64,000 nucleotides of DNA from Calditrichia bacterium (GTDB lineage: Bacteria; Calditrichota; Calditrichia; RBG-13-44-9; J075), in NCBI GenBank assembly GCA_028284905.1, contig JANQQU010000087.1, positions 1,015 to 65,014 of the forward strand, written 5' to 3'. The position numbers were made by a program, and so were the translations under genes. Under the pieces are notes generated by a model. The model did no database searches and had not been told where the DNA came from. It was given only the letters and a program-made list of their open reading frames with translations. Positions 12,581-51,882 of the stretch are shown one piece after another. Position 1 is the stretch's first letter; each line of letters opens with the position of its first letter.

Positions 12581-13345
12581 ATGTCGAAAACCCATTCTCT
12601 AAAGAAAATTAATCGGAATGTACCGCTTAGTCTCAAAGTAGAAGAGCAATTAAGAAAAGCGATTTTCCAGAAGGTTTATGCACCTGGTGAGCGCTTGCCC
12701 AGTGAAACTGACCTCGTCGAAATATTTGGGATAAGTCGAACAGCAATACGGGAAGCATTACGAATGCTTGCTGGCCAGGGATTAATCGACATACGTGGGA
12801 GAAGTGGTGCATTTGTCGTGGAAATTGATTCAAGTCATGCTGCGAAACCACTGGCCACGCTTCTGCTCAGGAAATGTGGGGATCGCGGTTTGATTAATTT
12901 TATTCAGGCCCGAAAAGAAATTGAGCCCGGGAATGCTCGTTTGGCAGCAATTCATCGAACCGAAGAAGACATTCGCCACCTGGAAAAGTACTACACACTT
13001 ATGAAAGAAAATGTCGAGGACGCCAAAACTGTCGCTGAGAATGACAGTAAATTTCATAACAGAATTGCACAAGCGACTCAAAACCCAATCATTCCAATCA
13101 TTATGGAGCCGATTTTTCTGCTGCTGCCACAGTTGTTAACAGTCAATTTAGATGTGCTTTCTCATCGACAGGTATCCTTGCAACATCATCAAAATATTCT
13201 TGATTGCATTATCAGGGAAGATGCTGACGGTGCTTTTCAAGCGATGTTGGAACATATGAACATCGCCGAAGAGCATGTGAAAGAAGCTTATGAAAAGAAT
13301 ATTGTTACTGAAATAGATGAGGAAAATTACAATCTAGACATTTAG
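12581..13345 (+). CDS. GntR/FadR-family transcriptional regulator
   Basis: PGERLPSETDLVEIFGISRTAIREALRML winged HTH; FCD domain with DSKFHNRIAQATQNP. Confidence 0.92.
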   Translation: MSKTHSLKKINRNVPLSLKVEEQLRKAIFQKVYAPGERLPSETDLVEIFGISRTAIREALRMLAGQGLIDIRGRSGAFVVEIDSSHAAKPLATLLLRKCGDRGLINFIQARKEIEPGNARLAAIHRTEEDIRHLEKYYTLMKENVEDAKTVAENDSKFHNRIAQATQNPIIPIIMEPIFLLLPQLLTVNLDVLSHRQVSLQHHQNILDCIIREDADGAFQAMLEHMNIAEEHVKEAYEKNIVTEIDEENYNLDI

Positions 13346-13356
13346 CATTGATAATA

Positions 13357-15504
13357 TTATCTCGATAGATTCAATTCCAAACTTTTAAGTATCTTTTTAG
13401 TTTTCTCCGAATTTGGATCTATCGCCAACGCCCTTCGAAAAGCCGTCATCGCAGCATCGTGTTGCTTCTGCTGGAGCAGCATAACCCCAAAGTTATAGTT
13501 CAGTTTAAAATTATTTGGCACACGCGTTATGCCCTCATTAAAAGCTTCAATTGCTGCTTTGCTCTCTCCTTGTTCATGTAGCACAACCGCGAGTTTGTTA
13601 TATGTTTCTGCCAGATAAAGGCCCAAACGAATAGTTTCCTTATAGTAATAAACAGCCTTGTCATACTGTTTAAGGCCATGATGAAAAATACCCAGATTCA
13701 AATAGGCTTCCGTATAAATTGGATACGACTCAATTGCTTTTGAGTAATATTCAATCGCCTTGTTAACATCCCTTTCCTTAAAATGAAGCCCAGCTATTCT
13801 GCCATATGCCAAATAGTTATTGGGTACCATTTCTAACACAGATTGTAATTTTTTTATAGCTGCCTTGTTTTGTCCCAATTGCTCAAGGTATTCGCCATAT
13901 TTCCAATGCAGCCACCAGTCAAGAGGATTGGATTCAATCGCTGACCGATACTGTGGATCGAGAGATTTCAAGGCGGCCGGTTTTACATTATCAGACAATG
14001 CCATAAGTTGCTGCCTTAGTTGCTTAATGCGTTCCCGGCTATAAAGTTGGTTCGTAAAAGGCGCTTCTTTCTGGAATTTCAGAAGATAAAGGTTGGCAAA
14101 CCGTTGTTTTTCATGATCAAAATAGGCAAGCATTTCGGCGCATACATCTTTCCGGGGTAGAGGAGTATCCGACAGTTTTTCTTCCCTAACCCATTCTGGC
14201 AATATCTCTTCTATCTTCTCATAAAACGTTTTAGCCAGGAGATAATTACCGGAGAAGTTCATATGAACATGTTCATAAAACAAGCTGTCACCAGGCATAC
14301 CATTCGGGCTGTTCTCAGAGAATTCTTTCTCTGCATCAATTAAAAAAACACCCTGTTCTTTTTTCTGATTGGCCAGGTCGCGAATGATTTCATTAATAGA
14401 ATTATCCGCCCGAAAACGCAAGGTGTCAAAACGACGTGCCAGGCTATAATGTTCTATACTCTTTTTATAAGCGCCTAAGCGTTCATAACACTTTCCCATG
14501 CGGAAATGTAGATCAGCATATTCAGTATCTATCAGGCTCGCTTTGAGGTAAAAGTCCAGCGCTTTTGAATAATCCGAATTTTCTTCATAATTAATGCCTT
14601 GCTTATAGATTTTATCCCATTCTGCTTTTTGTGAATCAGTCAGCTGCTTTTTGTGAAGAGAAGCGAATGGTGGACTGTCTTTGAGATTACTAGCCACCGT
14701 CGAAAAAATTATTTTTGCCCCGCCATCTTTTGCCGAATTTTGTATGTCCTCCAGATTTTCCCGAAAATTCTCATATACTTCCGCTAAATTGGGATTGCTC
14801 GCACGTACCTGGTTTTCCAGGAACATACTCATCCCCCTCCATGTTTGCGGATTATTGTCATCACGGAAATAAGCAATGAGGTTGGTGTAGAGTTGGGCTA
14901 TTTTGGTTCTTTTAAAAGCAATACCGAAACGAATCAGTGCAAGATTTCCACTGATTGGCGTAAAAACAGTGCCGGCGCCATATGGTCCGACCACTTCGTT
15001 ATTGCCCAGGTAGACAAGAAAAAGGTCCGGCTGGTAATCAGCACACTCCTTCGCGATTTCCAAGACGACATGAGAGTTTATGGCAGGCATCGCCAGGGTT
15101 ATTACTTCAAATTTTATTTGATCGTATTTTTCGGTAAGCATTGTTTCCAGAATACGACCGAAAGAAAAAGCCCCATCTGGCGTCCCGGCAGCTGCGGATC
15201 CACCTAACACAAAAATTCGGTAGGCATTATCATCCTTATCTACCGGAAAAGAAAAGGGGTATGCGGTTCGTGCGATGGTAGGGGGGAAGAAACGCCAGGC
15301 ATATTTGTCATTATTCGTATAAGTTTCTCTGCCTTTAATAGTTTCTTTAAGGGCTAACTCAGTGGGGAATCCGTAGTCAATAATTCGTAAACCGGCCTCA
15401 AGAAGCAGCAGGGCAACGGGGAGGATCAGTATTGCCAAAATGCGGAAAATCCATAAGCGTCGGCCAGTCGTCATTTTATACCTGCATTTGTTCTTGTTTT
15501 TCAC
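13357..15504 (-). CDS. Membrane-anchored SGNH-like domain plus TPR repeat protein
   Basis: N-terminal TM helix, RIFVLGGSAAAG, YLGNNE, YEHVH; C-terminal TPR repeats (e.g. AYLNLGIFHHGLKQYDKAVYYYKETI). Confidence 0.75.
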   Translation of the reverse strand: MKNKNKCRYKMTTGRRLWIFRILAILILPVALLLLEAGLRIIDYGFPTELALKETIKGRETYTNNDKYAWRFFPPTIARTAYPFSFPVDKDDNAYRIFVLGGSAAAGTPDGAFSFGRILETMLTEKYDQIKFEVITLAMPAINSHVVLEIAKECADYQPDLFLVYLGNNEVVGPYGAGTVFTPISGNLALIRFGIAFKRTKIAQLYTNLIAYFRDDNNPQTWRGMSMFLENQVRASNPNLAEVYENFRENLEDIQNSAKDGGAKIIFSTVASNLKDSPPFASLHKKQLTDSQKAEWDKIYKQGINYEENSDYSKALDFYLKASLIDTEYADLHFRMGKCYERLGAYKKSIEHYSLARRFDTLRFRADNSINEIIRDLANQKKEQGVFLIDAEKEFSENSPNGMPGDSLFYEHVHMNFSGNYLLAKTFYEKIEEILPEWVREEKLSDTPLPRKDVCAEMLAYFDHEKQRFANLYLLKFQKEAPFTNQLYSRERIKQLRQQLMALSDNVKPAALKSLDPQYRSAIESNPLDWWLHWKYGEYLEQLGQNKAAIKKLQSVLEMVPNNYLAYGRIAGLHFKERDVNKAIEYYSKAIESYPIYTEAYLNLGIFHHGLKQYDKAVYYYKETIRLGLYLAETYNKLAVVLHEQGESKAAIEAFNEGITRVPNNFKLNYNFGVMLLQQKQHDAAMTAFRRALAIDPNSEKTKKILKSLELNLSR

Positions 15505-15705: not shown

Positions 15706-18300
15706 TTATTTCAAAAGGATCATTTTTTTACTTTTGAAGAAACTACCGGCTTTTAACCGATAGATATACAGGCCGGATGAAACGTTTTTTCCAAATTTAT
15801 TTTTACCATCCCATACATGTTGATAATTACCCGGTTCAAGGGCACTCCAACGAAAGGAATTAACCTTTTGTCCTAAAATATTAAATATGTCAATGCGGGC
15901 GTCAACCGTTTCCGAAACATCAAATGAAATGGTTGTCGCTGCATTAAACGGATTGGGATAGTTCTGTGCTAATGAGAATTCCGTTGGCACCTCGATCGGT
16001 TCTTTATCTATTACTTCCAAAAATAAAGTGCCATAAACCGGAAGCGTCAGGCTTGTGTCTACATAAGTGCCATTCAACAAATTTTTAAGGGCAGAAATAT
16101 TGCCGTTCCTGAGCGAAATATCAAGTTTGGCAGGCGTATTACCTAAATTAACAACCGAGACAATATTATTCCCATTCGTCCCTTTCACAATTTTCCAGGT
16201 GCAGGTCTTGACAGAACGATCATTGGTTTCTGTTATTTTTACTTCAGGTAGTTTGTTCGCAACAAAAGATAGCGCGGCATTTTTAATGGCCTCAACCCCA
16301 TTTGTCCGAATAATATTTCCTGATAGCTGCGTAGTATGAATCTCGCCATACTCATTCATTTCCAAGCTGGCATCATCTAAAATGACTGTACCACCATTAT
16401 CCAAATATGATTGCAGGGCCTCAAACTCTTCCTGCGTGACATACTCGGTTTTATGAACAGTAATGAGATCCCAATCTTGTTGATTTTGCCGGTTAATAAT
16501 TCCCGCTGTAGCAAAACCAATCGGCACTCCCTCGAAAAACAAGGATTCGTATAACTCGAAGACGTCATCCATATGATGCGATTTATTGATGGCGGAGGTT
16601 TCCGAGTAAAATATGCGGATCGGCTTTTCTTGCCGCTGCATAGCCATAATTTCTTCGCTAAACGAATTTAGATCCATTAAAGTTGAGTGAAGCTCCTGCG
16701 TCACCCGTGGCTGCTGATTATTGGAGCCGGCGTAACTGTTTGTGACAGGCGTTCTTAATGAACCATCTTCCCGCCTCGGCCAATACCAGGTCTGGCTGGC
16801 ATTTAAACCCTGGGTATGGGCCAGCCAGTAAGTTGCACGGGCATAAGCAGGATCCAGATATAAGTCTCTTGATATGGTGGTTGACAAATAATGTGCTTCG
16901 GAATTAAATATAATTTTCTCCGGACTGACGGATTTTAAAAAATCATAGCTCATGCACATTTCCCGCCAATCATAGGAATAGTTTTCTTCCCATAAAAAGG
17001 GGCCGCCCCACATACGATTGTGGGAAGCCCCGGCATCGTTACCAATAATTTCGCTCAGTACTGTCAGCGCTTCAAAATCGATCCCGTGCCCCCGCTGATT
17101 TTCTGACCAGAGCCAGGGCATGATTTTCAGATGGACTTTCGCATTCGGATCGTTTTCAATAATTTTATTTTTTAGAAAAGTATACCAATCCGTTACCCGA
17201 TCGTTGTTAAAGAGATGCCAATCATACCATTTCGCTGTTCCGATCAATCCATCACTAATTGGAATGTCTATTGTTACTGCATCAAAGTCTGTAAAACTTG
17301 TCCCCCAGAGCGAGTTTAGTATGTTGATATCTCCATGTCTATTTTGTAGCCAAACCTTAAATTTATCAATTGTATAATCAGTAACGGGGCCGCTTGCCCA
17401 ATTTAAAATGCCAGTTGATTTTTTAGTCGTAAAAAAGTGGGGTTCATTAACCAACATATAGCCTAAATCGGCATATTTCTTTCCAGCAATTTGGGGCACA
17501 GTAGCATCGAGTAAAAATCCCATCATTTCCCGGGCGCCGGGGTTATCAATATCATAATCTGTAAACCTTGTGCCGGTGCTTGCTTTCAGGTCAAAACCCG
17601 GTCCATACTTATCTATTGCCCATTGCGGTGGGTTTCTATGACTAATAAATACGAATCCGATATTATCTGATTCTGAAGGCACGGATAGATTTACGCTTCC
17701 TGTTTCGTTTATAACATTCCTGGGTTGCATGAAAAACCCGCCGTTATCGCCAAAATACTCCGTCAATTCCGGTATATCCGGTTTCCAGGTATAGTATTCC
17801 AGAAACACCGGCCTGCTGTTATAACTCAATTGATCGCCGTTATGTGTAACATTCGCCCAGTCTATTTTGGGAATGGTTTTCCGCGTATAGATACCATCAA
17901 TTAGTTTCTTTAAGAAAACGATAGCGGAATCCAGCATTGTTATAACATCTTTACGTTCAAAATCCGGAAGGTCATTAGCCATTTGTGTAGCTGTGGTATT
18001 GTACTGATTCATTAAAGCAGATACCATCGCAAAATAGGAAGTATTCTCTGCGATATGCGCTTCATCCCAGTCGGCATATTTTAAAAAGACTTCTGCCGTT
18101 CGCACGGTCATCATTTCCTTTAATGCATCAATACCCTGCTGTTCTGCCTGGGTAATCAGGGCATTGAGTTCATTAATTTTAGCTTGTGCGGTATCTGCTA
18201 ATGTTTGCGCATTCAATGAATGGAAACATTGAAGAAGCAGGATTGTGAGAAGGACAAATTTCGTATATTTCATCGTAGCAATTTTCTCTATTTTATTCAT
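15706..18300 (-). CDS. Clan GH-A GH42-like/GH167-like beta-carrageenase candidate with C-terminal sorting domain
   Basis: Signal peptide, LVNEPHFF (acid/base), NSEAHYLST (nucleophile), GH42-like trimerisation-type region, QNYPNPFNAATTISF tail. Start moved to the ATG at 18300 (18273 possible). Confidence 0.65.
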   Translation of the reverse strand: MNKIEKIATMKYTKFVLLTILLLQCFHSLNAQTLADTAQAKINELNALITQAEQQGIDALKEMMTVRTAEVFLKYADWDEAHIAENTSYFAMVSALMNQYNTTATQMANDLPDFERKDVITMLDSAIVFLKKLIDGIYTRKTIPKIDWANVTHNGDQLSYNSRPVFLEYYTWKPDIPELTEYFGDNGGFFMQPRNVINETGSVNLSVPSESDNIGFVFISHRNPPQWAIDKYGPGFDLKASTGTRFTDYDIDNPGAREMMGFLLDATVPQIAGKKYADLGYMLVNEPHFFTTKKSTGILNWASGPVTDYTIDKFKVWLQNRHGDINILNSLWGTSFTDFDAVTIDIPISDGLIGTAKWYDWHLFNNDRVTDWYTFLKNKIIENDPNAKVHLKIMPWLWSENQRGHGIDFEALTVLSEIIGNDAGASHNRMWGGPFLWEENYSYDWREMCMSYDFLKSVSPEKIIFNSEAHYLSTTISRDLYLDPAYARATYWLAHTQGLNASQTWYWPRREDGSLRTPVTNSYAGSNNQQPRVTQELHSTLMDLNSFSEEIMAMQRQEKPIRIFYSETSAINKSHHMDDVFELYESLFFEGVPIGFATAGIINRQNQQDWDLITVHKTEYVTQEEFEALQSYLDNGGTVILDDASLEMNEYGEIHTTQLSGNIIRTNGVEAIKNAALSFVANKLPEVKITETNDRSVKTCTWKIVKGTNGNNIVSVVNLGNTPAKLDISLRNGNISALKNLLNGTYVDTSLTLPVYGTLFLEVIDKEPIEVPTEFSLAQNYPNPFNAATTISFDVSETVDARIDIFNILGQKVNSFRWSALEPGNYQHVWDGKNKFGKNVSSGLYIYRLKAGSFFKSKKMILLK

Positions 18301-18371
18301 GATAAAACAGCGGGTAGAGACGATCCTAATTCCTAGTGAGGCCTGCAATACTAGCACCTCAAACAGGTAAA

Positions 18372-19580
18372 TTATTTCATCAGAATCATTTTCCTGCTCT
18401 GGGAAAAGCTCTGACCTCTGCTTTTAATTCGAATCGTATAAAGGTAGATAGCACTTGAAACTTTTTGCCCGCTATCATTCAATCCGTTCCACTGCACGGA
18501 ATGGCTGCCGGTATTTTTCCTGGCACTGACTAAAGTCCGAACCTTTTGACCGGCTAAATTATAAATCTCTAACTGTACATAGGATTCCACAGGTAGTTGA
18601 TAACGGATATTTGTCTTTGGGTTGAACGGATTCGGATAATTCTGTTCCAACCCAAATCCGGTCGCAATGGATATATCTTCAACATCGGAAATAGCTGTTG
18701 GATCATCTTCACGTTGCCAAACCCGGATATATTCAATTTCAAAATCTGCGGGCAGATTGTTTGGATCCGGAATACCCCACCAGGGAAAGATTTCTGCATC
18801 AGCCCAAATGTGTTGACCGCCGGTCAATGACCAGCGAGTTGAGTACTTATCGTTCGCTGCCCCTTGTGCCGGGGTATTTTCCACCCAATCCCTGCTGGTT
18901 CCGTGAACAAACTGACCATCGGCATAGATTTTTAAAGAGTCCTGATCCCACTCAGCAGCAAATGTATGAAAACCATCTCTAAAATTGAAAGGCAGCTGTG
19001 TTCTATCCGACCAGGAATGGTTCGGGCGTGGAAATGACCAGTCATGAAGCGATGACCACATTCGCGCCGAGTATATTAAATGTTTCCCAATGGCCTCAAA
19101 AACATCCAGTTCACAGAGATCATCTCCGGTTGTCCAGAAGGCAGCCACCGCTCTTGCATCCGCCAGCTTACAACGAATTTCCATATACCCGGCACTATCC
19201 GATTTTACTTTAGACCACATTCCCCCGGTGGTAAACTGATAATTGCCTGTCCCCGGGTTAACCCAAGGATAATCGGGATCATATTCTGTGCGAATTTTAA
19301 GAATACCGTTTGAGACATGCATGTTATCCGGAGAATATTGCCAGCCGACATCTGTTGTAGGATCATAGCGGCCGGTAAATATTCCTGCCCAGTAGATGCT
19401 ATCTCTGCCGCAAACCTGCCATTTGTTTTCATCCAACGATGTACCGTTGAATTCATCACTAATAGCAGTGTTTAATATCCAATTTCCCGAATTCGTTGGA
19501 TCAGTATGTGGATACGGTTGAGCGACAAGATTGCCAGCGCCCAAAATAAAGATCAGTGCAAAATATATTGTTCTTTTCAT
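18372..19580 (-). CDS. GH16 galactan hydrolase with C-terminal sorting domain
   Basis: SDEFNG, catalytic ELDVFE, FHTFAAEW, EIEYIRVWQ, QNYPNPFNP tail; start set to MKRTIYF at 19580. Confidence 0.85.
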   Translation of the reverse strand: MKRTIYFALIFILGAGNLVAQPYPHTDPTNSGNWILNTAISDEFNGTSLDENKWQVCGRDSIYWAGIFTGRYDPTTDVGWQYSPDNMHVSNGILKIRTEYDPDYPWVNPGTGNYQFTTGGMWSKVKSDSAGYMEIRCKLADARAVAAFWTTGDDLCELDVFEAIGKHLIYSARMWSSLHDWSFPRPNHSWSDRTQLPFNFRDGFHTFAAEWDQDSLKIYADGQFVHGTSRDWVENTPAQGAANDKYSTRWSLTGGQHIWADAEIFPWWGIPDPNNLPADFEIEYIRVWQREDDPTAISDVEDISIATGFGLEQNYPNPFNPKTNIRYQLPVESYVQLEIYNLAGQKVRTLVSARKNTGSHSVQWNGLNDSGQKVSSAIYLYTIRIKSRGQSFSQSRKMILMK

Positions 19581-19641
19581 ACCTTCTTTTCTTGTTCTTG
19601 AATAGGCAGTATTAAAATTTCCACGATACACTTTCCAAGAA

Positions 19642-22038
19642 CTACTCTCCCATAATTTCAAGCAATAATACACCGTTTGATTTCAGTTCGAATGCCGAAC
19701 CTAATTGTTGCCCGGTTAGCATATCCGTAGAAATTGCGCTATTGCCATTCTTCATCTGGATTTGTAGTTTTGCGCTGTTTTTTCCGACATTAAGGATTGT
19801 CATCCAATAACCACCATTCGGATTTTTGACAACCCTCCAGGTACAACCTTTATCTGGTGTTCCATTGGATTCGGTGAGAACCACCTCCGGCAAATTCCCG
19901 GAATTTAACGATAGCACTTTATTTTTTAGCTCTGCAACGGCAACTTCTTTCTCCATTAAAATCAAATTGCCATTACTTTCTTCCAGGTGCTTTTGGCGTT
20001 TTTGCCCGTATTCATTTTTTCTCAAACTATTCTGATGGTCAATGATTATGGTGCCGCCGCGATTCAGATAGCTTTGTAGCGCGTCGAACTCAGCATCGGT
20101 TACAAATTCCGTCTTATAAACAACAATCACATCCCAGTTTTCAGGATTTTGCTTTTTAATGATTTTTTCCGTGGCATACCCTAGTGGAAATCCTTCAAAA
20201 TACAACGATTCGTATAGTTCAAACTGTTCTGACATATGATGCTTTTTGTTGATAGCGGACGTTTCCGAATGAAACAATCGTATTGGCCTCCGCTGTTTGC
20301 GCAAAGCCATCACCTCTTCAGAAAAGCTGTTTAAATCCATATAAACCTGGGCGACTTCATTCACTGTCTGAGGCTGCATATTGGCAGAACCCGCATACGA
20401 ACCTGCAAGAGCAGGGTCAAAGAAACTTAACTCACCTTCCAGCCGGTCTTCCGGAGAACCGTCCGGGTCTCTGGCCCAAAACCAGGAGATGCCCGCATCC
20501 ATTCCGTGAATTGTCGCCAACCAAAAGACGTTTCTCACATAGTCCGCAGAGGTGTTTAAGTCTCTCCATCCCGAGGTGGAAAGAAAATGTGTTTCGGAAT
20601 TTACATGTATTTTATGCGGCGAAACGGATTCCATAAAATCATAAGAAAGGGCAAGTTCCTCCCAAAAATAAGCGTATTTAGATTCCCATTTTTCCGGTTT
20701 ATCAGGCCATCTTAAATCCCGGCCAGCGACGGCTTTCGCATCATCGCCGATCATAGATGTTAGCTCGGTTAAGGCTTCTAAATCGATCCCATGGGAACGG
20801 TAGTCGTCCGTGAATAGGTTGGGCATAATTTTGATATGGGTATCGGCATCCGGATTGGCGGAATGTAATTCATTTTGTAAATAAGTGAACCAATCAATCC
20901 CCCGGTCCATATTAAAGCGGCACCAGTCGTACCACAGCGGTTTTCCCCGGTTAGACTTATCGATAGGGATTTCTATTTCCACCGCATTAAAATCGCTAAA
21001 AACACTTTGCCAATTTCTGTTTAGCGCATCAATCTTACTGTTGTATTTTTTTTCTAACCAGTTTCTAAACTTGTTGAGGGTATAGGATGAAATGTCATTC
21101 ATCTCTTTAAAATTCTGAGACCAGTGCCCTTTTTCCGAATACCAGTGCGGTTCGTTGGATAAAATGTAACCAAGCTGGGTTACTTTTTTACCTTTTGTCA
21201 ATTCCCCGGCTTTCCTGATAACATCGCTCCAAACTTGTCTCATTAGCGGGTTGTCCACGTCAAAACCGGTAAAAAGTGATCTTCCTTTAGCGACTTCAGG
21301 TTCCTGCTGGTGTATCCATTCCGGCATTCCCATGTTCCAGAGTATCAGGAAACCAACGTTGGTGTTAGGTACTTCGGTAATATAGCCCAGTTTCTCCTGA
21401 TTAAATGTTCCATCCTGGTTAAGAATAAATGGATTAATTGCTCTATCCTGATCGACTTCATACAATCTGCTGCCGCCATGGTAAATATTGCCTAAATGGT
21501 CGTTATACACTTTTTTATCTGTTAAAGACCTTCCGACTGATTTAGAAAAATAATCAAATAGAAACACCGGTTTACCGTTACTTAAAAACTGATCTTCTTC
21601 AACAACGATGTTTTCCCAATCTATTTTGGAAACAGGCCTTCTAACAATACTGCCATTCAACACTTTCTTAAGGTTATCTATGCCCTTGTCCAAAATTTCA
21701 ATGACTTTTTGCCTCTCAAAATCAGGAAGCTCCTCTGCATATTTCGCTTTCTCATTTTTATAGGGGCCATAGTAACCGAAGAGTTTTTCTATCGCGGGCT
21801 TATTCGCTTCATCCCAATCAGCGAACTTCAAGAACTCCTTCGAAAACCAAAGTAATGATTCCTCTCTGGTGACATCGATTGATCTATTTCTCGCTTCCTT
21901 CATTAAAGCTTCAAGAACGCTTATCTTCAGGATGGCGTTTTCTTTATGTTGTGCCATACAGTTGGTCATAGATAAAAGAGTAACTAACAAAAGGCAGAAC
22001 AAAATTTTTATGTGAGCTGTATTCTCTATTTTATTCAC
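19642..22038 (-). CDS. Second GH42-like/GH167-like beta-carrageenase candidate, no sorting tail
   Basis: LSNEPHWY, NSETHFLST, SYAGSANMQP; clear paralog of the 15706 gene. Confidence 0.65.
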   Translation of the reverse strand: MNKIENTAHIKILFCLLLVTLLSMTNCMAQHKENAILKISVLEALMKEARNRSIDVTREESLLWFSKEFLKFADWDEANKPAIEKLFGYYGPYKNEKAKYAEELPDFERQKVIEILDKGIDNLKKVLNGSIVRRPVSKIDWENIVVEEDQFLSNGKPVFLFDYFSKSVGRSLTDKKVYNDHLGNIYHGGSRLYEVDQDRAINPFILNQDGTFNQEKLGYITEVPNTNVGFLILWNMGMPEWIHQQEPEVAKGRSLFTGFDVDNPLMRQVWSDVIRKAGELTKGKKVTQLGYILSNEPHWYSEKGHWSQNFKEMNDISSYTLNKFRNWLEKKYNSKIDALNRNWQSVFSDFNAVEIEIPIDKSNRGKPLWYDWCRFNMDRGIDWFTYLQNELHSANPDADTHIKIMPNLFTDDYRSHGIDLEALTELTSMIGDDAKAVAGRDLRWPDKPEKWESKYAYFWEELALSYDFMESVSPHKIHVNSETHFLSTSGWRDLNTSADYVRNVFWLATIHGMDAGISWFWARDPDGSPEDRLEGELSFFDPALAGSYAGSANMQPQTVNEVAQVYMDLNSFSEEVMALRKQRRPIRLFHSETSAINKKHHMSEQFELYESLYFEGFPLGYATEKIIKKQNPENWDVIVVYKTEFVTDAEFDALQSYLNRGGTIIIDHQNSLRKNEYGQKRQKHLEESNGNLILMEKEVAVAELKNKVLSLNSGNLPEVVLTESNGTPDKGCTWRVVKNPNGGYWMTILNVGKNSAKLQIQMKNGNSAISTDMLTGQQLGSAFELKSNGVLLLEIMGE

Positions 22039-38218: not shown

Positions 38219-38241
38219 TCAATAACGGGCAAAATATTGTA

Positions 38242-40519: not shown

Positions 40520-40562
40520 AAACTTGATCTATACAATAGAGAGCGAAGGGGTAATGGTTACC

Positions 40563-43747: not shown

Positions 43748-45736
43748 ATGACAGACGCATATCTGCACAAAAAAGCAATTATTAACAATTCGGAAAGTCC
43801 GCATGTAAAATTGAAAAGCATCAACATTGGTGATTGCCGCTGGACGGACGGTTTTTGGGCGAAGAAGTTTAGAAGCTGTGAAGAGGCAATGGTGCCATAT
43901 ATGGGCGAGGTATTATGCGGAGACGTTGGCCATGCTTTGAACAACTTCAAAATTGCTGCTGGCGAAAAAGAAGGCGAACATCAGGGGATGTTTTGGCATG
44001 ATGGCGATTTTTACAAGTTTATGGAAGCGAAAACCTATGTTTACGCCCAAACTGAAAATAAACAATTGCTGGAAGAGCTGGATGAGTACATCAGAATCAT
44101 TGCCAAAGCGCAGGAGGCAGACGGCTATCTGCAAACCCAGATAAAACTTCGGCAAGGCGTCGATCGATATGAGAATCGCAAGTACCACGAAATGTATAAC
44201 ACCGGTCACCTCCTCATCAGCGCCTGCATCCATCACCGCGTTACCGGGCAACGAAACTTTCTCGATATCGCGATAAAGCAAGCGGATTTGCTATACACGA
44301 TTTTTATGCCGGAAACCAAGCATTATGGCCGTTTCGGTTTTAACCAGACGCAGATCATGGGATTGGTTGAATTATATCGCACTACCAGAGATAAAAAGTA
44401 TCTCGATTTGGCAGAACGATTCATCAACAACCGCGGCAAGTATACGGTTGAGCATCATTCCACCACCGAAGGCTATCCCATTGGAGATATGGTTCAGGAA
44501 CGCACCCCGCTCCGCGAATCGAATGAAGCGGTTGGGCATGCAGTGCTTGCCTTGTACTACTATGCCGGCGCTGCCGATGTTTATGCCGAAACCGGCGAAC
44601 AAGCACTGATTGATGCCCTTGACAAACTTTGGGAAAATGTAACCAATAAAAAGATGTTTGTTACCGGCGCGGTTGGTCAGGCGCACTACGGCGCTTCCAC
44701 CAATCGGGATATGATTGAAGAGGGATTTATCGATGAATACATGATGCCCAATATGACCTCCTATAACGAGACTTGTGCGAATCTTTGCAACGCAATGTTT
44801 AGTTACCGGATGCTCGGTTTACATGGGCAGGCAAAGTATGCAGACATCATCGAGTTGGTGTTATTCAACAGCGGCCTTTCCGGTATCAGCATTGAAGGGA
44901 AAGATTATTTTTATGCCAATCCCCTGCGCATGATCCACAATACCCGGGACTATCACGCCCATGAAAATGTTACCGAAACACCGGACCGCGAGTCCTACCT
45001 TCACTGTTTCTGCTGCCCGCCGAATTTGGTGCGTACCATTGCGAAGGTATCCAGCTGGGCGTACAGCTTGTCGGAGAATGGGGTTGCGGTGAATCTGTTT
45101 GGCAGCAACCAGTTAAACACCCGCCTGTTAGACGGCTCAGCGCTAAAACTCACTCAGCAGACAGAATATCCCTGGGATGGCCGGGTAAAAATCACCATTC
45201 AAGAATGCAAGGAAGCACCATTTGAGGTTTTACTACGAATCCCCGGTTGGGCGGAAGGCGCGAAAGTTCTAGTGAATGGCCATGATGCCGGCATCGACGT
45301 TGCTTCCGGCAAATTTGCCAGAATCGAACGTCAATGGAGAAAAGATGATGTTATTACCCTGGATATGCCAATGGAGATCCATCTGGTAGAAGGGCACCCC
45401 CGCATTGAAGAAGTTCGTAACCAGGTAGCAATTAAACGCGGACCAGTGGTGTATTGTATTGAATCGCCGGACTTACCAGCGGATACGAAAATTCTGGATG
45501 TTTACATTTCCGGGAATACTGAATTGAAGGCAGAACATCGCCCGGAATTTTTGGGGGGGATTACCGTTCTCAAAGGAGATGTATTCCTGCGTCTCGATGA
45601 AGGTGAGGGGATTTATCGAACAGTGAAAAAGCCGAGCTGGAAGTCTCATGAGACTATCTTTGTCCCCTACTACGCATGGAGTAACAGAGGTACGGCAGAA
45701 ATGACCGTATTCATGCCTGTTATCTGGAAAGAGTAA
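43748..45736 (+). CDS. GH127 glycosidase, alpha-3,6-anhydro-D-galactosidase candidate
   Basis: HEMYNTGHL, GHAV, NETCAN, CFCCPPN, FVPYYAWSNRG motifs; GH127 enzymes fill this role in the Zobellia carrageenan pathway. Confidence 0.82.
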   Translation: MTDAYLHKKAIINNSESPHVKLKSINIGDCRWTDGFWAKKFRSCEEAMVPYMGEVLCGDVGHALNNFKIAAGEKEGEHQGMFWHDGDFYKFMEAKTYVYAQTENKQLLEELDEYIRIIAKAQEADGYLQTQIKLRQGVDRYENRKYHEMYNTGHLLISACIHHRVTGQRNFLDIAIKQADLLYTIFMPETKHYGRFGFNQTQIMGLVELYRTTRDKKYLDLAERFINNRGKYTVEHHSTTEGYPIGDMVQERTPLRESNEAVGHAVLALYYYAGAADVYAETGEQALIDALDKLWENVTNKKMFVTGAVGQAHYGASTNRDMIEEGFIDEYMMPNMTSYNETCANLCNAMFSYRMLGLHGQAKYADIIELVLFNSGLSGISIEGKDYFYANPLRMIHNTRDYHAHENVTETPDRESYLHCFCCPPNLVRTIAKVSSWAYSLSENGVAVNLFGSNQLNTRLLDGSALKLTQQTEYPWDGRVKITIQECKEAPFEVLLRIPGWAEGAKVLVNGHDAGIDVASGKFARIERQWRKDDVITLDMPMEIHLVEGHPRIEEVRNQVAIKRGPVVYCIESPDLPADTKILDVYISGNTELKAEHRPEFLGGITVLKGDVFLRLDEGEGIYRTVKKPSWKSHETIFVPYYAWSNRGTAEMTVFMPVIWKE

Positions 45737-45763: not shown

Positions 45764-47431
45764 ATGAATAATTTACTGAGCAGTTGCAGAACTTTAAGCA
45801 TTTTGTTCTTATTGATATTTGTCTGCGGATGCAAATCCGCCGAAGAACCACAACAAAAACCCAATATCCTCTTCATTGCGATTGATGACCTCCGTCCTGA
45901 ACTGGGTTGCTATGGCTCCGAGGTCGCAGTAACGCCCAATCTTGACAAATTCGCCAGTGAGGGTTTGCTTTTTAACAGAGCTTACGCTCAACAAGCCATT
46001 TGCAGCCCCTCCCGGGCCAGTCTTATGACCGGCGCCCGGCCTGAGACCATCAATATCATCGAAAATTATACCTATTTCCGGGATCTTCATCCGGATATCA
46101 TCACACTCCCGCAGCACTTCCGGGCAAACGGCTACGAAACCGTTCACAGCGGAAAAATTTATCATAAACCAGCCTTCGCAGACCTCGAAAAATCCTGGAG
46201 CCGGACGCCAGCAACACTTGATATTCCCGAGCCCAGATATCCCGGAGCTTATGCTTTGAAAGAGAATCAGGAAATTTTCAAAGAAAATCAGGCGACTATC
46301 CGCAAGAAGTATGGAGAAGGCGCTACTTCTCATCATGCGTTGGGGAGAGGGCCGGCTTATGAAAAAGCAGATGTGCCCGATCATGCCTACATCGATGGTT
46401 TTCATACCGAAGAAGCTATTGCAACGATGAAAGAGATGGCTAACCAAGGAGACAAACCATTTTTTCTCGGGCTGGGATTCAGATTGCCTCATCTCGATTG
46501 GAATGCGCCGAAAAAATATTGGGATTTATATGATCCGGAAAAAATACCAATGGCGGCGCAAACCGAGCGGCCGAAAAATGGGGCTGCAATGGGGCTGCAT
46601 GCCTCATTCGAGCTACGGGTAAGGCATGGCATCCCAAAAAGTGGGCCTATCGAGGGAGAATTGGCAAGAACGCTAAAACACGGCTATCTCGCCAGCGTCA
46701 GTTATGTAGATGCCCTCTTTGGAAAAATGCTAACAGCTTTGGAAGCAGCTGGCGTACGGGATAATACCATTATCATCGTCTGGAGCGATCACGGCTGGCA
46801 TTTGGGAGATATGGGTATTTGGGGGAAAGCAACCAATTATGAAATTGCTACTCGCGTCCCCATGATGATTTGGACACCGGACATGCCCGGAGAAAACCGC
46901 GGGAAAAAAACCGATGCTTTAGTTGAATTAATCGACATGTATCCAACCTTATGCGAACTGGCCGGTATTGAATTGCCCGCACATCTGGAAGGCCAAAGTT
47001 TTGCTCCGCTTTTGGAAGTGCCGGATAGGGAGTGGAAAAAAGCAGCGTTCAGCTTATATCCAAATCCTGCTCTTCGGGAATGGGCGGCGAATCCCCTGAC
47101 TGCGAGCATGCGGGAAACTTATTTTGGTCCGTTAATCGAAGCAGTGGAATCACGTATTATCACGCAACAAAAGGAAAAATGGGATCGCGACTTATTCGAA
47201 AACGATCTGATGGGCTACACAATGCGAACCGATAAATACCGCCTGGTAGTTTGGAAAGATCACACAAATCCGGATAGTCAGCCCATTTTTCTGGAGCTTT
47301 ACGACCATCAGACTGATCCTGCAGAAACTATAAATATTGCTCAGGATGAGCCGAAATTGATCAAGAAACTATTGGCGCAATTCAATGCAGGATGGAAAGG
47401 GAGCCTCGCTGCAATGGAGCGAGTAAATTAG
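45764..47431 (+). CDS. S1 sulfatase (S1_7/iduronate-sulfatase-like) lipoprotein
   Basis: IAIDDLRP, ICSPSRASLMTG, GKIYH, RLPHL, SDHGWHLG; lipobox-like VCGC. Confidence 0.88.
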   Translation: MNNLLSSCRTLSILFLLIFVCGCKSAEEPQQKPNILFIAIDDLRPELGCYGSEVAVTPNLDKFASEGLLFNRAYAQQAICSPSRASLMTGARPETINIIENYTYFRDLHPDIITLPQHFRANGYETVHSGKIYHKPAFADLEKSWSRTPATLDIPEPRYPGAYALKENQEIFKENQATIRKKYGEGATSHHALGRGPAYEKADVPDHAYIDGFHTEEAIATMKEMANQGDKPFFLGLGFRLPHLDWNAPKKYWDLYDPEKIPMAAQTERPKNGAAMGLHASFELRVRHGIPKSGPIEGELARTLKHGYLASVSYVDALFGKMLTALEAAGVRDNTIIIVWSDHGWHLGDMGIWGKATNYEIATRVPMMIWTPDMPGENRGKKTDALVELIDMYPTLCELAGIELPAHLEGQSFAPLLEVPDREWKKAAFSLYPNPALREWAANPLTASMRETYFGPLIEAVESRIITQQKEKWDRDLFENDLMGYTMRTDKYRLVVWKDHTNPDSQPIFLELYDHQTDPAETINIAQDEPKLIKKLLAQFNAGWKGSLAAMERVN

Positions 47432-47435
47432 AAAA

Positions 47436-49337
47436 ATGATATCCCTGAATTACATCAGAATAACTCTATTCCTGATTGCTTGCTGGATGTTTTTCCTGAG
47501 CGTCGGTAAGCACACTTTCGCAGAAGAATCAAAGCAAACAATTCTGCGACCTTCTTTCGTAGAGGCACATGCGGATTTTCCGCGAGTAGAAAAAAATCTC
47601 AGAAAATGGGATGCCCCTGTGATAGCGGATCTGGATCAGGATGGCTTTTTGGATCTCCTCCTAAACGAGCATGGATTTAGCGTAAGCGTATGCTGGAATA
47701 ACCAAGGTCGTTTTGCCAAACCTTATGATTTGATTATGGGCGATATGCATGGCATTTCGGTTGGAGATTTTGACCGGGATGGCAATCTGGAGATCGTCAT
47801 TTCCCGCGGCGGCGGCTCGGGCAGTAATGCCCGAAACTCTAAGATTCTGCGGGTTGACCGACAGCGTAATTTTACCGATCTGCCCGATTTTAATCCCCCT
47901 TTAGAGTTGATGCGGGGACGCACGGTTAAATTTTATGATGGTGATAATGATGGCGATTTAGACCTCCTGAACTTCGCTTTTCCAGATCGCGAGAAGAAAG
48001 GAAAAAGTGAAAACTATATCTATGAGAACGATGGTAAAGATCAACTAGTGCTTGCCTCCCTGCTGCCACCGGTTAAATCCGATGGTCAGAAAACCTTAAT
48101 CACGGATTTTAATGGGGATGCTATTGTCGATTTGTTGCTATACGGGCATGGCAGCGTAAAAGCATACCAGGGACAAGGTGATCTGACCTATACAGATATG
48201 ACAGATGCAGTATTTCCTTATGACATTAAGGATGTAACTTGCATCGTTGAATTTGACTACGATAATGACGGCGATTTTGATTTGTTTTTTACCCGTGGAA
48301 AAGGATTTGAAATTGGTGAGACCTTTTTCGACAAAGAAAGAAAAATTTGGGGATTTTTCACCAGCCGTGGTGAATTCAAGTTTGAAGATTTGGAAACCGG
48401 TGATGTTTTAAATATTGAGAACTTTCAATCGCAGTGGCCCTATAATGATGCTTATTACATTGGTGAGTCTGCTTATATTTATGAATTTCCCGGTGAAACA
48501 CATTCCGGAAAAGACATTCGCTTAGTTAACAGCAATGCATTGGGTTTCCCGGATAAATTAAATGAAGACGGTGGCTTTCATATTGGATATATCGGCAACC
48601 GAAAATGGCGGATTGCCGGAAATATTAGGTCCCCTGCGACTGGTGTTATCCGTGGCGTCGCTGCTTATTCTGACTACAATCATCCCAAAGGGTTAAATGA
48701 TATTTTGCTGGAAAACAAGGATGGCAAGTTTGTTGATGCCACCGAAAAAAAGAACCTCTACCGCGAAGAGCACACTACCGGAGTGGCAGTCGCAGATCTG
48801 GATAACAATGGATTGCAGGATTTGTTGATTGCTCGCCGCGGCAATTTAATTCACGAAAACGAAGCGCTTATTTACCTGAATCAAGGTGCAGCCGGATTCA
48901 AGCAGTTAAAACATCACCAAATTATTTCACCCGAACTGGGTGCAATAGGGTTGGGATTGGAAACTTTCGCTTATAACCATGATGGCAAAGTCGATGTGGT
49001 AATTGGCAATGAGCGTGGGAAATGGCATTTATTCAAAAATACGATGCCGGCAGCTGAAAACGTTAATTTTATTGTTGTGGAGGTGGGTAATTCGGCATCA
49101 GGAAAAGCGACCGCGCTGGGGGCATTGGTAGAAGTTAACGGTTGCGGTACGAAGCAAATCAAGCGGGTCGGGTCAAGCGGCGCGGCTTATTCTCGCAGTT
49201 TTAATCATTTTATTCATTTTGGCTTAGGCGCATGTGATGGTCCTGTTAAAGTAACGGTCACCTGGACAAACGGCGAAGCATTGACGCATAGAATCGCCTC
49301 CCTAAATAGCAAGGTGTTTGTTGGTGCCAAAAATTGA
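47436..49337 (+). CDS. FG-GAP repeat/ASPIC-UnbV (CRTAC1-like) secreted protein
   Basis: Six or more DxDxDG-type repeats; C-terminal ALGALVEV...HFGLG. Confidence 0.82.
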   Translation: MISLNYIRITLFLIACWMFFLSVGKHTFAEESKQTILRPSFVEAHADFPRVEKNLRKWDAPVIADLDQDGFLDLLLNEHGFSVSVCWNNQGRFAKPYDLIMGDMHGISVGDFDRDGNLEIVISRGGGSGSNARNSKILRVDRQRNFTDLPDFNPPLELMRGRTVKFYDGDNDGDLDLLNFAFPDREKKGKSENYIYENDGKDQLVLASLLPPVKSDGQKTLITDFNGDAIVDLLLYGHGSVKAYQGQGDLTYTDMTDAVFPYDIKDVTCIVEFDYDNDGDFDLFFTRGKGFEIGETFFDKERKIWGFFTSRGEFKFEDLETGDVLNIENFQSQWPYNDAYYIGESAYIYEFPGETHSGKDIRLVNSNALGFPDKLNEDGGFHIGYIGNRKWRIAGNIRSPATGVIRGVAAYSDYNHPKGLNDILLENKDGKFVDATEKKNLYREEHTTGVAVADLDNNGLQDLLIARRGNLIHENEALIYLNQGAAGFKQLKHHQIISPELGAIGLGLETFAYNHDGKVDVVIGNERGKWHLFKNTMPAAENVNFIVVEVGNSASGKATALGALVEVNGCGTKQIKRVGSSGAAYSRSFNHFIHFGLGACDGPVKVTVTWTNGEALTHRIASLNSKVFVGAKN

Positions 49338-49530: not shown

Positions 49531-50568
49531 ATGACACAATCAAAAAATGAAAATCCACATCGCCGATATAACCCTTTAACTGGCGAATGGGTGCTGGTTT
49601 CCCCCCATCGCACCAAACGCCCCTGGCAGGGGAAAGTGGAAACACCGCAACAAGAAGTTCGGCCGGAACATGATCCAAACTGCTACCTGTGTCCGGGAAA
49701 TATGCGCGCCGGGGGACATCAAAATCCCAATTACAAGAACACTTTCGTTTTCACCAATGATTTTGCTGCTTTACTGCCTGGCGTTTCAGATCCTGAAAAT
49801 GAATCCCACTCGTTGATGCAAATGCAGGCCGTAAGCGGCACTTGCCGGGTAATTTGTTTTTCACCCCGCCACGATTTGAGTCTGGCAGAAATGCAGGTAG
49901 AGAACATCCGGAAAGTGGTTGATTTGTGGAGCGAGCAGGTTGAAGATCTCGGGCGAGAATATCGTTGGGTGCAGGTTTTCGAAAACAAAGGGGAAATTAT
50001 GGGCTGCTCTAACCCCCATCCCCACGGGCAAATATGGGCGAGTGATCAAATCCCCAATGAACCGTTTAAAGAGAATCGTGAACAAGCGCTTTATTATCAA
50101 AAGCACGGCTCCATTTTGCTTTTGGATTATTTAGCAGAAGAAATATCCAAACAGGAACGCATTATTGTTGAAAACGAACACTGGGTTGTGCTTGTGCCTT
50201 ATTGGGCAGTGTGGCCTTTCGAAACATTGTTGCTACCGAAAAGGCATGTGCGCCGTCTGCCGGATTTATCGAATATTGAACGAGATGCGCTGGCGGATAT
50301 TCTAAAGCGCCATTTAACCCGCTATGACAATTTATTCGAAATCTCATTCCCATATAGCATGGGCTGGCACGGCGCGCCAACCGATGAGCAGGATAATCAA
50401 CATTGGCAATTGCACGCCCACTTTTATCCGCCCCTGCTTCGTTCGGCAACTGTGAAAAAATTCATTGTGGGATACGAATTGCTCTCCGAAGTTCAACGGG
50501 ATATTACACCGGAGCAGGCTGCAAAGCGATTACGCGATTTATCTGAAATTCATTATAAAGGAAGTTGA
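49531..50568 (+). CDS. galT: Galactose-1-phosphate uridylyltransferase
   Basis: [40 protein letters not shown]. Confidence 0.96.
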
Positions 50569-50613
50569 TGTATCAAACGGCTACAAAGGTAAAAAATAAC
50601 AGAGCATGATATT

Positions 50614-51882
50614 ATGAATACTTTACCATCTGTACTTAGAAAATTTTATGGAGATTGTGAGCATACACAGCAGAAGCAAGAAAATCGTTATGCGAAACTT
50701 CATGATACTTTTGCATCAAGATTCGGTAAACAGCAGGTTTACCTTTTTAGCTCGCCAGGCCGTACCGAAATAGGCGGGAACCATACCGACCATAATCATG
50801 GCCGGGTGTTGGCAGCCAGTGTGAACCTCGATTCAATTGCTGTTGCATCCAGGAATAGCGAAGACACTGTGGTTTTATATTCTGAAGGGTTTGATACATC
50901 TTTTGTGGTTGATTTATCCCAACTGAATGTTGTTCAGGAAGAACAGGAAACAACATATGCACTAATTAGAGGTATTGCCGCCCGGCTCAAGCAATTAGGA
51001 TATACAATTGGTGGATTTAACGCCTGCATGACCAGCGAGGTGCTGCCAGGATCGGGATTGAGTTCATCTGCATCAGTAGAAGTACTGATCGGCTCAATAT
51101 TTAATACCCTTTACAATGCAAACAGAATTTCTCCGGAGGAATTAGCACAAATCGGGCAGTATGCTGAGAATGAGTATTTTGGGAAACCGTGTGGTTTGAT
51201 GGATCAAATGGCTTGTGCAGTAGGCGGTATTGTTACCATCGATTTCGCCAATCCTCAACATCCGCTGGTTGATAAGATAGACTTTGATTTTAATGCCCAA
51301 CAGTATCGGCTGCTGGTGGTGGACACCGGGGGGAATCACGCCGATTTAACCGATGATTATGCCGCTGTTCCTCAGGAAATGAAATCGATTGCTTCTGCAC
51401 TTGGCGCAGACGTTTGCCGGGAGATAGATTATAATCAATTGGTCAAGCAAATGGGATTGCTACGGAATCGAGTGGGTGATCGGGCAATATTGCGCGCAAT
51501 CCATTTTCTCGGCGATAACGACCGCGTTCTGAAACAGGTAACGGCATTAAAAAACGACGATTTCCCCAAATTCCTTTCATTGATTAACGCATCCGGGAAT
51601 TCATCATTTAAGTGGTTGCAAAATATTTATACTGTCAAGAATGTTCGTGAACAAGGGGTTTCATTGGCATTAGCAATCACCGAAAATTTTATTACGAAAA
51701 TCGGAGAAGGGGCTTGTCGGGTGCATGGAGGAGGATTTGCCGGAACCATCCAGGTATTTCTCCCCCAAAGAAAAGTGCCGAAGTTTACGGCTCTCATTGA
51801 TACGGTTTTTGGAGAAGGAAAAGTGATGGACCTAACGATCAGGCCTTTCGGAACAGGCTGCTTAAATGCCGATATTTTATGA
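50614..51882 (+). CDS. galK: Galactokinase (GHMP)
   Basis: SPGRTEIGGNHTDHN, PGSGLSSSA, CGLMDQ, HGGGFAG; follows galT. Confidence 0.9.
   Translation: MNTLPSVLRKFYGDCEHTQQKQENRYAKLHDTFASRFGKQQVYLFSSPGRTEIGGNHTDHNHGRVLAASVNLDSIAVASRNSEDTVVLYSEGFDTSFVVDLSQLNVVQEEQETTYALIRGIAARLKQLGYTIGGFNACMTSEVLPGSGLSSSASVEVLIGSIFNTLYNANRISPEELAQIGQYAENEYFGKPCGLMDQMACAVGGIVTIDFANPQHPLVDKIDFDFNAQQYRLLVVDTGGNHADLTDDYAAVPQEMKSIASALGADVCREIDYNQLVKQMGLLRNRVGDRAILRAIHFLGDNDRVLKQVTALKNDDFPKFLSLINASGNSSFKWLQNIYTVKNVREQGVSLALAITENFITKIGEGACRVHGGGFAGTIQVFLPQRKVPKFTALIDTVFGEGKVMDLTIRPFGTGCLNADIL

Follow-up and report, generated by a model that had tools for sequence, protein, structure and literature searches.

A probable carrageenan catabolic locus between two tRNA-Phe scars in a Calditrichota-like genome

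Introduction

How carrageenan is broken down has been established for Bacteroidota and Gammaproteobacteria, and the capacity is predicted in Planctomycetota, Firmicutes and Kiritimatiellia. Calditrichota are better known from sediments and for protein degradation. The subject here is a block of about 39 kb, 12581-51882, in a 64-kb stretch of coral metagenome DNA that is referred to throughout, at its full length, as the window, and what is argued is that this block quite likely serves the catabolism of kappa-family carrageenans (kappa- and hybrid beta/kappa-carrageenan and, once desulfated, probably also iota-carrageenan) in a host that probably belongs to Calditrichota. By homology its gene set is a nearly complete one for carrageenan and is made of known enzyme families. 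The host phylum appears to be new for carrageenan breakdown, and a literature search found no paper tying that activity to Calditrichota.

What are the closest described systems? In Ficko-Blean et al. 2017 (PMC5698469) the core of a carrageenan system is given as dagA, dauA, dauB and dauD, with the kinase gene dauC present in most members. Zobellia galactanivorans, as described in that paper, and plasmid p1 of Flammeovirga kamogawensis are like the window in having GH127 adjoining S1_7, together with S1_19, dauA, dauB and a permease of the major facilitator superfamily (MFS). Zobellia, unlike the window, has dauC and dauD, an AraC regulator, an S1_17 sulfatase and a GH129-like enzyme, and in it the genes for the kappa-carrageenase and for SusCD lie apart from the main locus, whereas the window has a single block without SusD; nor is GH167 among the genes that the accessible text of PMC5698469 gives for the Zobellia polysaccharide utilization locus (PUL). 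The Flammeovirga cluster, which adjoins genes for a 2-keto-3-deoxygalactonate (KDGal) kinase and a KDPG-type aldolase, holds two GH127s that are 69% and 59% identical to that of the window, a sulfatase between them that is 63% identical to the S1_7-like one, and an enolase at 56%.

Comparison of loci, by tblastn against annotated plasmids, also brought out pKCTC22325 of Pseudoalteromonas carrageenovora, where an aldehyde dehydrogenase (ALDH) gene heads a run of ALDH, enolase, 2-dehydro-3-deoxygalactonokinase and KDPGal (the phosphorylated KDGal) aldolase genes, i.e., the dauABCD arrangement. This run adjoins genes for a pair of FadR/GntR regulators, a TonB receptor, GH16s, an MFS porter and CRTAC1, the window counterparts being 28-67% identical (ALDH 50%, S1_19B 67%, kappa GH16 45%, MFS 41%, CRTAC1 37%). 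With the Pseudoalteromonas locus of P. fuliginea PS47 and the P. carrageenovora 9T plasmid (PMC6923384, PMC6262041) the window shares GH16_17, a putative beta-carrageenase-type GH16, GH167, endo- and exo-acting S1_19, DauA and DauB, and also the MFS transporter, CRTAC1, a pair of FadR/GntR regulators and a TonB receptor unaccompanied by SusD; it differs from it in the presence of GH127 and of tails for the type IX secretion system (T9SS), in an S1_7-like rather than an unclassified S1_NC sulfatase, in HpcH rather than dauC/dauD, in galT/galK, and in the phylum.

An earlier note on this DNA had called the locus a hybrid. That description is hard to sustain, as Bacteroidota loci with paired GH167s (Wenyingzhuangia fucanilytica, Mariniflexile sp. 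AS56, Marinilabilia rubra) likewise combine a T9SS-tailed and an untailed GH167 with several sulfatases, and the carrageenan PULs (CarPULs) of Bacteroides xylanisolvens/ovatus carry both GH167 and GH127 (PMC13168452). These loci, at ~50-57% identity, are unlike the window in having SusD, lambda-carrageenase domains and GLAA-B beta-barrel proteins. As a mix of genes the block resembles toolkits known from Bacteroidota and Pseudoalteromonas. The novelty is in the apparent host phylum and in the lack of dauC/dauD from the window, where an HpcH aldolase would replace them. Set against the core of Ficko-Blean et al., the window has a putative dagA-type GH127 gene, an adjacent dauA/dauB-like pair, and candidate S1_19/S1_7 sulfatase and endo-carrageenase genes, and lacks dauD and dauC.

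Organisation of the block

Gene identities come from Pfam, NCBIfam and PDB sequence searches of the window open reading frames (ORFs), and the features are collected in Table 1. The block comprises 24 close-packed ORFs, 94% of it being coding by the ORF calls, and extends from the start of a GntR regulator gene to the end of galK. A leftward group (13357-34867) is followed by a rightward one (35374-51882), and the lone rightward regulator gene stands at the left edge, 12581. Each gene class on the parts list of the earlier note was recovered in its place by these searches, and its proposal of a carrageenan pathway covering both monomers is borne out as far as homology can tell, with D-galactose served by galK/galT and 3,6-anhydro-D-galactose by DauA/DauB-like enzymes. 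Its term ‘self-contained’ is nearly right; the window does not hold dauC, dauD, galE or a sulfatase-maturing enzyme. The locus was present in no RNA run searched.

Table 1. Coordinates of the genes of the block and of the tRNA-derived scars at its two ends (E values are from PDB sequence searches unless another source is named)
Feature	Position	Strand	Evidence
Left scar: terminator-like hairpin (12403-12427) and last 36 nt of tRNA-Phe(GAA), without CCA	12395..12470	-	Repeat search, tRNA comparison
FadR/GntR-family regulator 1	12581..13345	+	Pfam GntR and FCD; operator-like site 12542
GDSL-like hydrolase fused to TPR repeats	13357..15504	-	Pfam; kept in both relatives
GH167, exo-beta-carrageenase type, T9SS C-terminal sorting domain	15706..18357	-	9whd (‘GH167 glycoside hydrolase’) 7.6e-254, 6ptm 5.9e-211; Por_Secre_tail
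GH16, beta/kappa-carrageenase-like paralog, T9SS tail	18372..19673	-	9ijc 1.4e-38; ELDVFE
Second GH167, untailed, lipoprotein-like signal	19642..22038	-	6ptm 1.2e-163
406-aa T9SS-tailed protein	22456..23676	-	Pfam sorting domain; 99% identity in sister genome
GH16, beta/kappa-carrageenase type (GH16_13-like), lipoprotein	23795..24739	-	9ijc 1.7e-116; ELDMFE
S1_19 sulfatase, endo-G4S kappa/iota-carrageenan type, T9SS tail	24849..26645	-	9hh3 6e-168, 6bia 6.6e-156, 6b0j (iota-carrageenan sulfatase) 2.3e-153; CGPSR
GH16_17 kappa-carrageenase, lipoprotein	26679..27617	-	1dyp 4.5e-66, 5ocq 6.7e-66, 5ocr 2.3e-61; EIDVVE at residue 167
PorV/FadL-like outer-membrane beta-barrel	27791..28765	-	Pfam PorV 9.8e-09
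708-aa secreted protein directly downstream of TonB receptor	28824..30950	-	No family match even at E 0.01
SusC-like TonB-dependent receptor (CarboxypepD_reg and Plug)	30982..33858	-	Pfam
FadR/GntR-family regulator 2, divergent from dau genes	34106..34867	-	Pfam; predicted promoter 34925-34897, operator-like site 34875
DauB-like enolase-superfamily cycloisomerase; true start probably ATG 35470	35374..36600	+	56% identity to Flammeovirga and 40% to P. carrageenovora enzyme adjoining dauA
DauA-like ALDH (3,6-anhydro-D-galactose dehydrogenase type)	36619..38055	+	50% identity to P. carrageenovora pKCTC22325 ALDH
HpcH/HpaI class II aldolase, at dauC/dauD place of known loci	38203..39018	+	Pfam, NCBIfam; recurrent synteny
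S1_19B-type exo-G4S kappa sulfatase	39092..40519	+	6prm 7.7e-207; 67% identity to P. carrageenovora plasmid gene
GH16, beta/kappa-carrageenase-like	40494..42014	+	9ijc 8.6e-63; ELDIFE
Sugar-porter MFS transporter	42089..43702	+	Pfam/NCBIfam; 41% identity to P. carrageenovora CarPUL MFS
GH127, probable cytoplasmic alpha-1,3-(3,6-anhydro)-D-galactosidase (DagA type)	43748..45736	+	69%/59% identity to Flammeovirga dau-cluster GH127s; CFCCPPN
S1_7-like sulfatase, lipoprotein	45764..47431	+	6hhm 6.6e-98, iduronate-2-sulfatase 1e-65
CRTAC1/ASPIC-UnbV FG-GAP protein, conserved accessory of carrageenan loci	47436..49337	+	37% identity to P. carrageenovora locus CRTAC1
galT	49531..50568	+	Pfam
galK	50614..51882	+	Pfam
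Right scar: hairpin terminator (51923-51949) and last 48 nt of tRNA-Phe(GAA), with CCA and anticodon loop	51913..52008	-	Repeat search, tRNA comparison

Polysaccharide-cutting enzymes and sulfatases

The GH167s are full-length likenesses of BovGH167 (6ptm), an exo-enzyme releasing neo-beta-carrabiose (Hettle et al., PMC6923384). Across 18 sequences the glutamates of an NE and an NSE motif are invariant (E305 and E487 in the first window enzyme, E296 and E482 in the second), and going by position they are the counterparts of the acid/base and nucleophile E295/E472 in BovGH167 numbering. All four GH16s have their ExDxxE motif whole. For the GH16_17 enzyme, porphyranase matches are far weaker than those to kappa-carrageenases (1.2e-10 vs 4.5e-66), and for the other three, whose best PDB match is in each case 9ijc, porphyranases and agarases come at 1e-15 or weaker; the GH16_13-like one is 40% identical to the second (non-kappa) GH16 of the P. 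carrageenovora plasmid locus. Might the GH16s instead have been agarases or porphyranases, an outcome that the earlier note had named as telling against it? By PDB search they match carrageenases. Separately, the 506-aa GH16 of the rightward group has ~180 C-terminal residues that lack a Pfam match and could be an undescribed binding module.

The CxPSR motif is whole in the three block sulfatases, and the signal peptide of the S1_19B-type one is a plain one. The window is without a GH82 iota-carrageenase, so that iota-carrageenan would presumably be desulfated first, by the S1_19 and S1_7-like enzymes, as has been proposed for PS47 (PMC6923384). The GH127 has all three GH127 Pfam domains and a whole CCPPN motif. 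At the level of whole loci, homology to P. carrageenovora and Flammeovirga suggests that it is of DagA type, and that it is the D-anhydro sugar on which the ALDH/enolase pair acts.

Anhydro-sugar catabolism and its proposed ending

That pair is adjacent (35374-38055), its ALDH and enolase being respectively 50% and 40% identical to those of P. carrageenovora and 45% and 56% to those of Flammeovirga. A dehydrogenase preferring the L-anhydro sugar, the other outcome named in the earlier note, is not what its annotated relatives point to, as the closest of these, for ALDH and enolase alike, sit in dauABCD clusters. How, though, would the route end? No DgoK, DgoA or Eda-type Pfam match, as expected for dauC/dauD products, was found in ORFs of at least 150 aa of the window. 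At their place is the gene for the HpcH/HpaI aldolase, in the same orientation after dauB-dauA and 147 bp past the ALDH stop. The cluster to which this aldolase belongs has two members at at least 90% identity, and the contig of a sister genome (see below) spans that stretch, from which the aldolase would be conserved there.

The gene contexts of five homologs, 60-65% identical to the window aldolase, were examined, and three are of anhydrogalactose type. In a Rikenellaceae metagenome-assembled genome (MAG) the order is sulfatase, ALDH (53%), HpcH, GntR, GH127 and GH2; in a Kiritimatiellae MAG it is enolase (62%) and HpcH; and on ENA contig k141_2557837 (5303-8768) enolase, ALDH and HpcH are ordered as in the window, the trio being preceded by genes for a GH129-like protein, a PfkB kinase, MFS and RhaT and followed by two melibiase-type (alpha-galactosidase-like) genes. 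The visible stretch of these three loci has no dgoK/dgoA-type gene. We tentatively propose, while giving it slightly less than an even chance, that the HpcH/HpaI aldolase is a kinase-independent end of the pathway, converting 2-keto-3-deoxy-D-galactonate to pyruvate and D-glyceraldehyde in place of dauC/dauD, and that its recurrence in Rikenellaceae, Kiritimatiellae and one metagenome contig marks a widespread undescribed variant, possibly typical of anaerobic carrageenan degraders. A non-phosphorylative variant has already been suggested for species without dauC, with dauD kept in the core (Ficko-Blean et al., PMC5698469); a literature search found no paper joining an HpcH-type aldolase to the anhydrogalactose pathway. 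If it is true, a shorter, kinase-free anhydro-sugar route would be of interest for engineering microbes that ferment red seaweed.

Uptake, export and regulation

No ORF gave a SusD_RagB or SusD-like Pfam match, so that the TonB receptor lacks the partner by which a canonical Bacteroidota PUL is recognised. T9SS sorting domains (Por_Secre_tail/CHU_C) are on four block proteins, namely a GH167, one GH16, an S1_19 sulfatase and the 406-aa protein. Lipoprotein-like signals are on the kappa-carrageenase, one GH16, the second GH167 and the S1_7-like sulfatase, and a signal peptide is absent from the GH127, enolase, ALDH and HpcH aldolase. The locus illustrates a Bacteroidota-type glycan system that would run without SusD, on a TonB receptor and export by T9SS.

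The 406-aa T9SS protein is the most conserved of the block, at 99% in the sister genome vs 86-98% for the others. Its residues 35-260 match repeated modules of giant proteins of 2,000-7,000 residues, and in the relative with a 72% identical GH167 it is duplicated into a 691-aa protein. AlphaFold models, predicted with no alignment as input, reached a mean confidence (pLDDT) of just 42 for this protein and 33 for the 708-aa one, too low to be of service.

A 15-mer, TGTATACATTATACA, has 12 matches in the window at up to 3 mismatches (1.9 expected), a count that no shuffle reached. Operator-like sites precede regulator 1 (12542), the kappa-carrageenase gene (27665) and the TonB receptor gene (34008), and others separate the divergently oriented genes for regulator 2 and dauB, where exact copies at 34875 and 35310 are just downstream of sigma-70-like promoters scoring 11/12 and 12/12 respectively, the latter being the predicted promoter on the dauB side (35267-35295). 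Recurrence of the 15-mer in promoter regions of both halves of the block fits their forming a single regulon.

Proposed pathway

In the scheme that follows, enzyme types are taken from homology, and activities and locations are those that we infer. At the cell surface, the lipoprotein GH16_17 kappa-carrageenase and the T9SS-exported S1_19 G4S sulfatase (G4S denoting 4-sulfated galactose), GH16 paralog and GH167 would cut and partly desulfate the polymer, and the resulting oligosaccharides would enter by the SusC-like TonB receptor, which is followed not by SusD but by the 708-aa protein and the PorV-like barrel. In the periplasm the exo-G4S S1_19B-type and S1_7-like sulfatases may bare unsulfated ends, from which the GH167s would free neo-beta-carrabiose. 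The MFS porter would bring the disaccharide in, for the cytoplasmic GH127 to split it into D-galactose and 3,6-anhydro-D-galactose, the former then taking the Leloir route via galK/galT. The DauA-like ALDH would oxidise the anhydro sugar and the DauB-like enolase would turn the product, by isomerisation, into 2-keto-3-deoxy-D-galactonate, which the HpcH-type aldolase may cleave directly to pyruvate and D-glyceraldehyde without dauC kinase or dauD aldolase. Repression of the operons is probably the task of the two FadR/GntR regulators, acting at a common TGTATACATTATACA-like operator. As everything is in one block, the locus is a handy source of enzymes, offering three beta/kappa-type GH16 paralogs along with both GH167s and the three sulfatases.

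Borders, relatives and host

What the earlier note took for att bounds are real. Both scars have the hairpin GGGTTACAAGAA..TTCTTGTAACCC and an identical 36-nt core that is the reverse complement of the tRNA-Phe(GAA) 3′ end, i.e., a direct repeat of tRNA-Phe origin stands at each end of the block. The hairpin pattern and a 28-nt part of the core each matched these two sites alone (vs 0 in 100 shuffles). The tRNA-Phe fragments (36 nt and 48 nt) are identical to intact genes in five MAGs, and Calditrichia IP29b has a very similar hairpin downstream of its intact tRNA-Phe. Besides, in the Calditrichota MAG Dive96_bin10.75 an identical tRNA-Phe is directly followed downstream by a gene for a tyrosine integrase (417-1445), which indicates that tRNA-Phe is an integration site in the phylum. 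Of the features by which tRNA islands are recognised, the direct repeats from the tRNA 3′ end are present here, and an integrase, an intact tRNA and an atypical composition are not. The hairpin and tRNA fragment as a composite had no match in species genomes, and no empty site was found, the tRNA-Phe loci of five related MAGs sharing no flanking genes with the window.

The sister genome is represented by a 41.7-kb algal-metagenome contig that is colinear with the window from ~10.4 to 52.0 kb and has the same neighbouring SDR gene. Nucleotide identity is ~94% over the part compared (34000-52008), and that of the proteins 86-99%. The contig ends inside the right tRNA fragment, and its left scar differs at several positions; occupation of the same site together with a diverged left scar argues for vertical inheritance since the insertion. 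In the sister's left junction (15890-15960) paired changes keep the T-stem, CCCAG/CTGGG having become CCCGG/CCGGG, and its tRNA fragment may stem from another tRNA-Phe allele and not be a product of random decay. A third lineage (GH167 72% identical) has genes for GH16, the T9SS protein, GH167, the TPR protein and enolase in another arrangement, beside a transposase. Other GH167 relatives are at most 57% identical and mostly from Bacteroidota, with a few from Planctomycetota/Verrucomicrobiota, and in the GH167 tree the three-member clade (support 1.0) is placed, on weak support (0.54), with T9SS-tailed GH167s of flavobacteria. On the strength of these relatives and the tree, a Bacteroidota-like source seems to have supplied the locus long ago, with inheritance inside a single lineage thereafter.

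Who, then, is the host? An exact 35-nt match to the tRNA-Phe was found in 6 of ~185,000 species genomes, four of them labelled Calditrichota, Calditrichia or Calditrichaceae, the other two being the MAG with the 72% GH167 relative and a 606-bp Saprospiraceae contig. A phosphomannose isomerase encoded outside the block has a Calditrichaeota MAG protein as its best named match (53%), with Chloroflexota (52%) and Ignavibacteria close behind. T9SS tails without SusD fit a non-Bacteroidota lineage of the FCB (Fibrobacterota-Chlorobiota-Bacteroidota) group. A host of that sort, which the earlier note had also suspected, is likely, and it is probable from the tRNA-Phe match and the flanking protein that the phylum is Calditrichota.

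To the right of the right scar, 52000-59200 is the compositional outlier of the window, its GC content being 0.35 where that of the block and left flank is 0.43-0.46. Among its genes are those for a CHAT-STAND-HATPase protein and a GAF histidine kinase, and it is probably a second island that used the tRNA-Phe site of the block. The simplest history would then be that the block integrated at tRNA-Phe, that the second island, the low-GC one from 52.0 kb, integrated at the rebuilt tRNA, and that the intact tRNA-Phe is by now beyond the window or lost.

Competing explanations

Several points count against what has been set out above, and they are best considered along with the competing explanations. 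Is carrageenan the target, or might it be another red-algal galactan (agar, porphyran), or pectic arabinan or rhamnogalacturonan II? The GH16 family also includes agarases and porphyranases, and the GH16 and sulfatase subfamilies were set here by best PDB matches, under the names given by depositors, and by synteny, rather than by dbCAN-sub or SulfAtlas models. The chain 9ijc is named merely ‘GH16 domain-containing protein’, the length that it has in common with the GH16_13 enzyme Cgbk16A_Wf, 321 residues (PMC8371452), being a hint and nothing more. The best solved relatives of the GH127 are beta-L-arabinofuranosidases, acting on L-arabinofuranosides, and a Bacteroides GH127, and its nearest NCBIfam model is aceric acid hydrolase. 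However, the score against that model, 718 bits, is below the cut-off of 950, and on this and the high identity to a dau-cluster GH127 the assignment as an arabinofuranosidase or aceric acid hydrolase was rejected; that DagA1 is at the root of the gut Bacteroides GH127 clade, according to Ficko-Blean et al. (PMC5698469), may explain the arabinofuranosidase-type PDB matches. Agar or porphyran as the target was likewise rejected, in that carrageenase matches, above all that of the GH16_17 enzyme, are far stronger than porphyranase ones and no ORF gave a GH50, GH86 or GH117 Pfam or PDB signal, and GH167 and S1_19 are, as far as characterised, specific for carrageenan. That the target is anything but carrageenan seems extremely improbable. 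The ending of the anhydro-sugar route is a more delicate matter, since dauC/dauD may be elsewhere in the genome; a usual ending, by KDGal kinase and KDPGal aldolase encoded there, with the HpcH protein serving another substrate or a side activity, is a sizeable possibility that we nevertheless rather doubt. The Zobellia carrageenan regulon (PMC5698469) includes genes far from the main locus; two of the five HpcH contexts (KSB1, Ignavibacteriales) are unrelated sugar-acid loci; the same HpcH clade is found in loci with heparinase-II/III-like genes and without dau genes; and a PfkB kinase gene is present in one dauB-dauA-HpcH locus. Against this are the orientation and closeness of the aldolase gene to dauB-dauA, its retention in the sister genome, and the association of its homologs with dauA- and/or dauB-like genes, with no dgoK/dgoA-type gene in view, in three loci of other lineages.

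The earlier note had also called the block horizontally mobile, a description that the analysis does not support. Might the block be an integrative element that is mobile at present or, in a weaker form of the idea, a cargo excised in trans by an integrase of the neighbouring island? The direct repeats from the tRNA-Phe 3′ end that flank it, both 36-nt core copies of which are still identical, the integrase that adjoins this tRNA in a further Calditrichota MAG, and the compositionally foreign island immediately to the right all speak for it, but it is nonetheless improbable. Neither an integrase gene nor a remnant of one is in the block or window, and the window has no intact tRNA-Phe, nor any tRNA gene, absences that detract from the case for any tRNA-directed integration as well as from that for present mobility. 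The tetranucleotide signature of the block correlates with that of the left flank (r = 0.93-0.94) as highly as the two halves of the block do with each other; in the sister genome the block occupies the corresponding site, again beside the SDR gene, with the left scar changed; and in the third relative the genes are rearranged and an intact tRNA-Phe is on a different contig. Taken together, the lack of an integrase, the composition matching the left flank and the shared site in the sister genome make it most likely that the block is an old, fixed integration scar that is compositionally native and not currently mobile. As to its bearer, the host call comes from a 35-nt tRNA match and one flanking protein, at 53% vs 52% for Chloroflexota, and this too is to be set against the Calditrichota assignment made above.

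Further observations

Between the CRTAC1 gene and galT is a hairpin-forming element of ~90 bp, 49375-49463 (TCATTGCGAGG...CCTCGCGATGA), for which the summed contig depth in the source run is ~377 vs ~48 nearby, and where numerous contigs end or show small indels; its appearance is that of a high-copy repeat of the repetitive extragenic palindrome or miniature inverted-repeat transposable element type (REP/MITE-like). Upstream of the block a sulfatase-fold protein (312-1775) has TLPAR where formylglycine sulfatases have CxPxR, and so is probably no formylglycine-dependent sulfatase. Next to it, 1775-4180 is one 801-aa ORF in which SBP_bac_1 (extracellular solute-binding) is fused with BPD_transp_1 (ABC permease).

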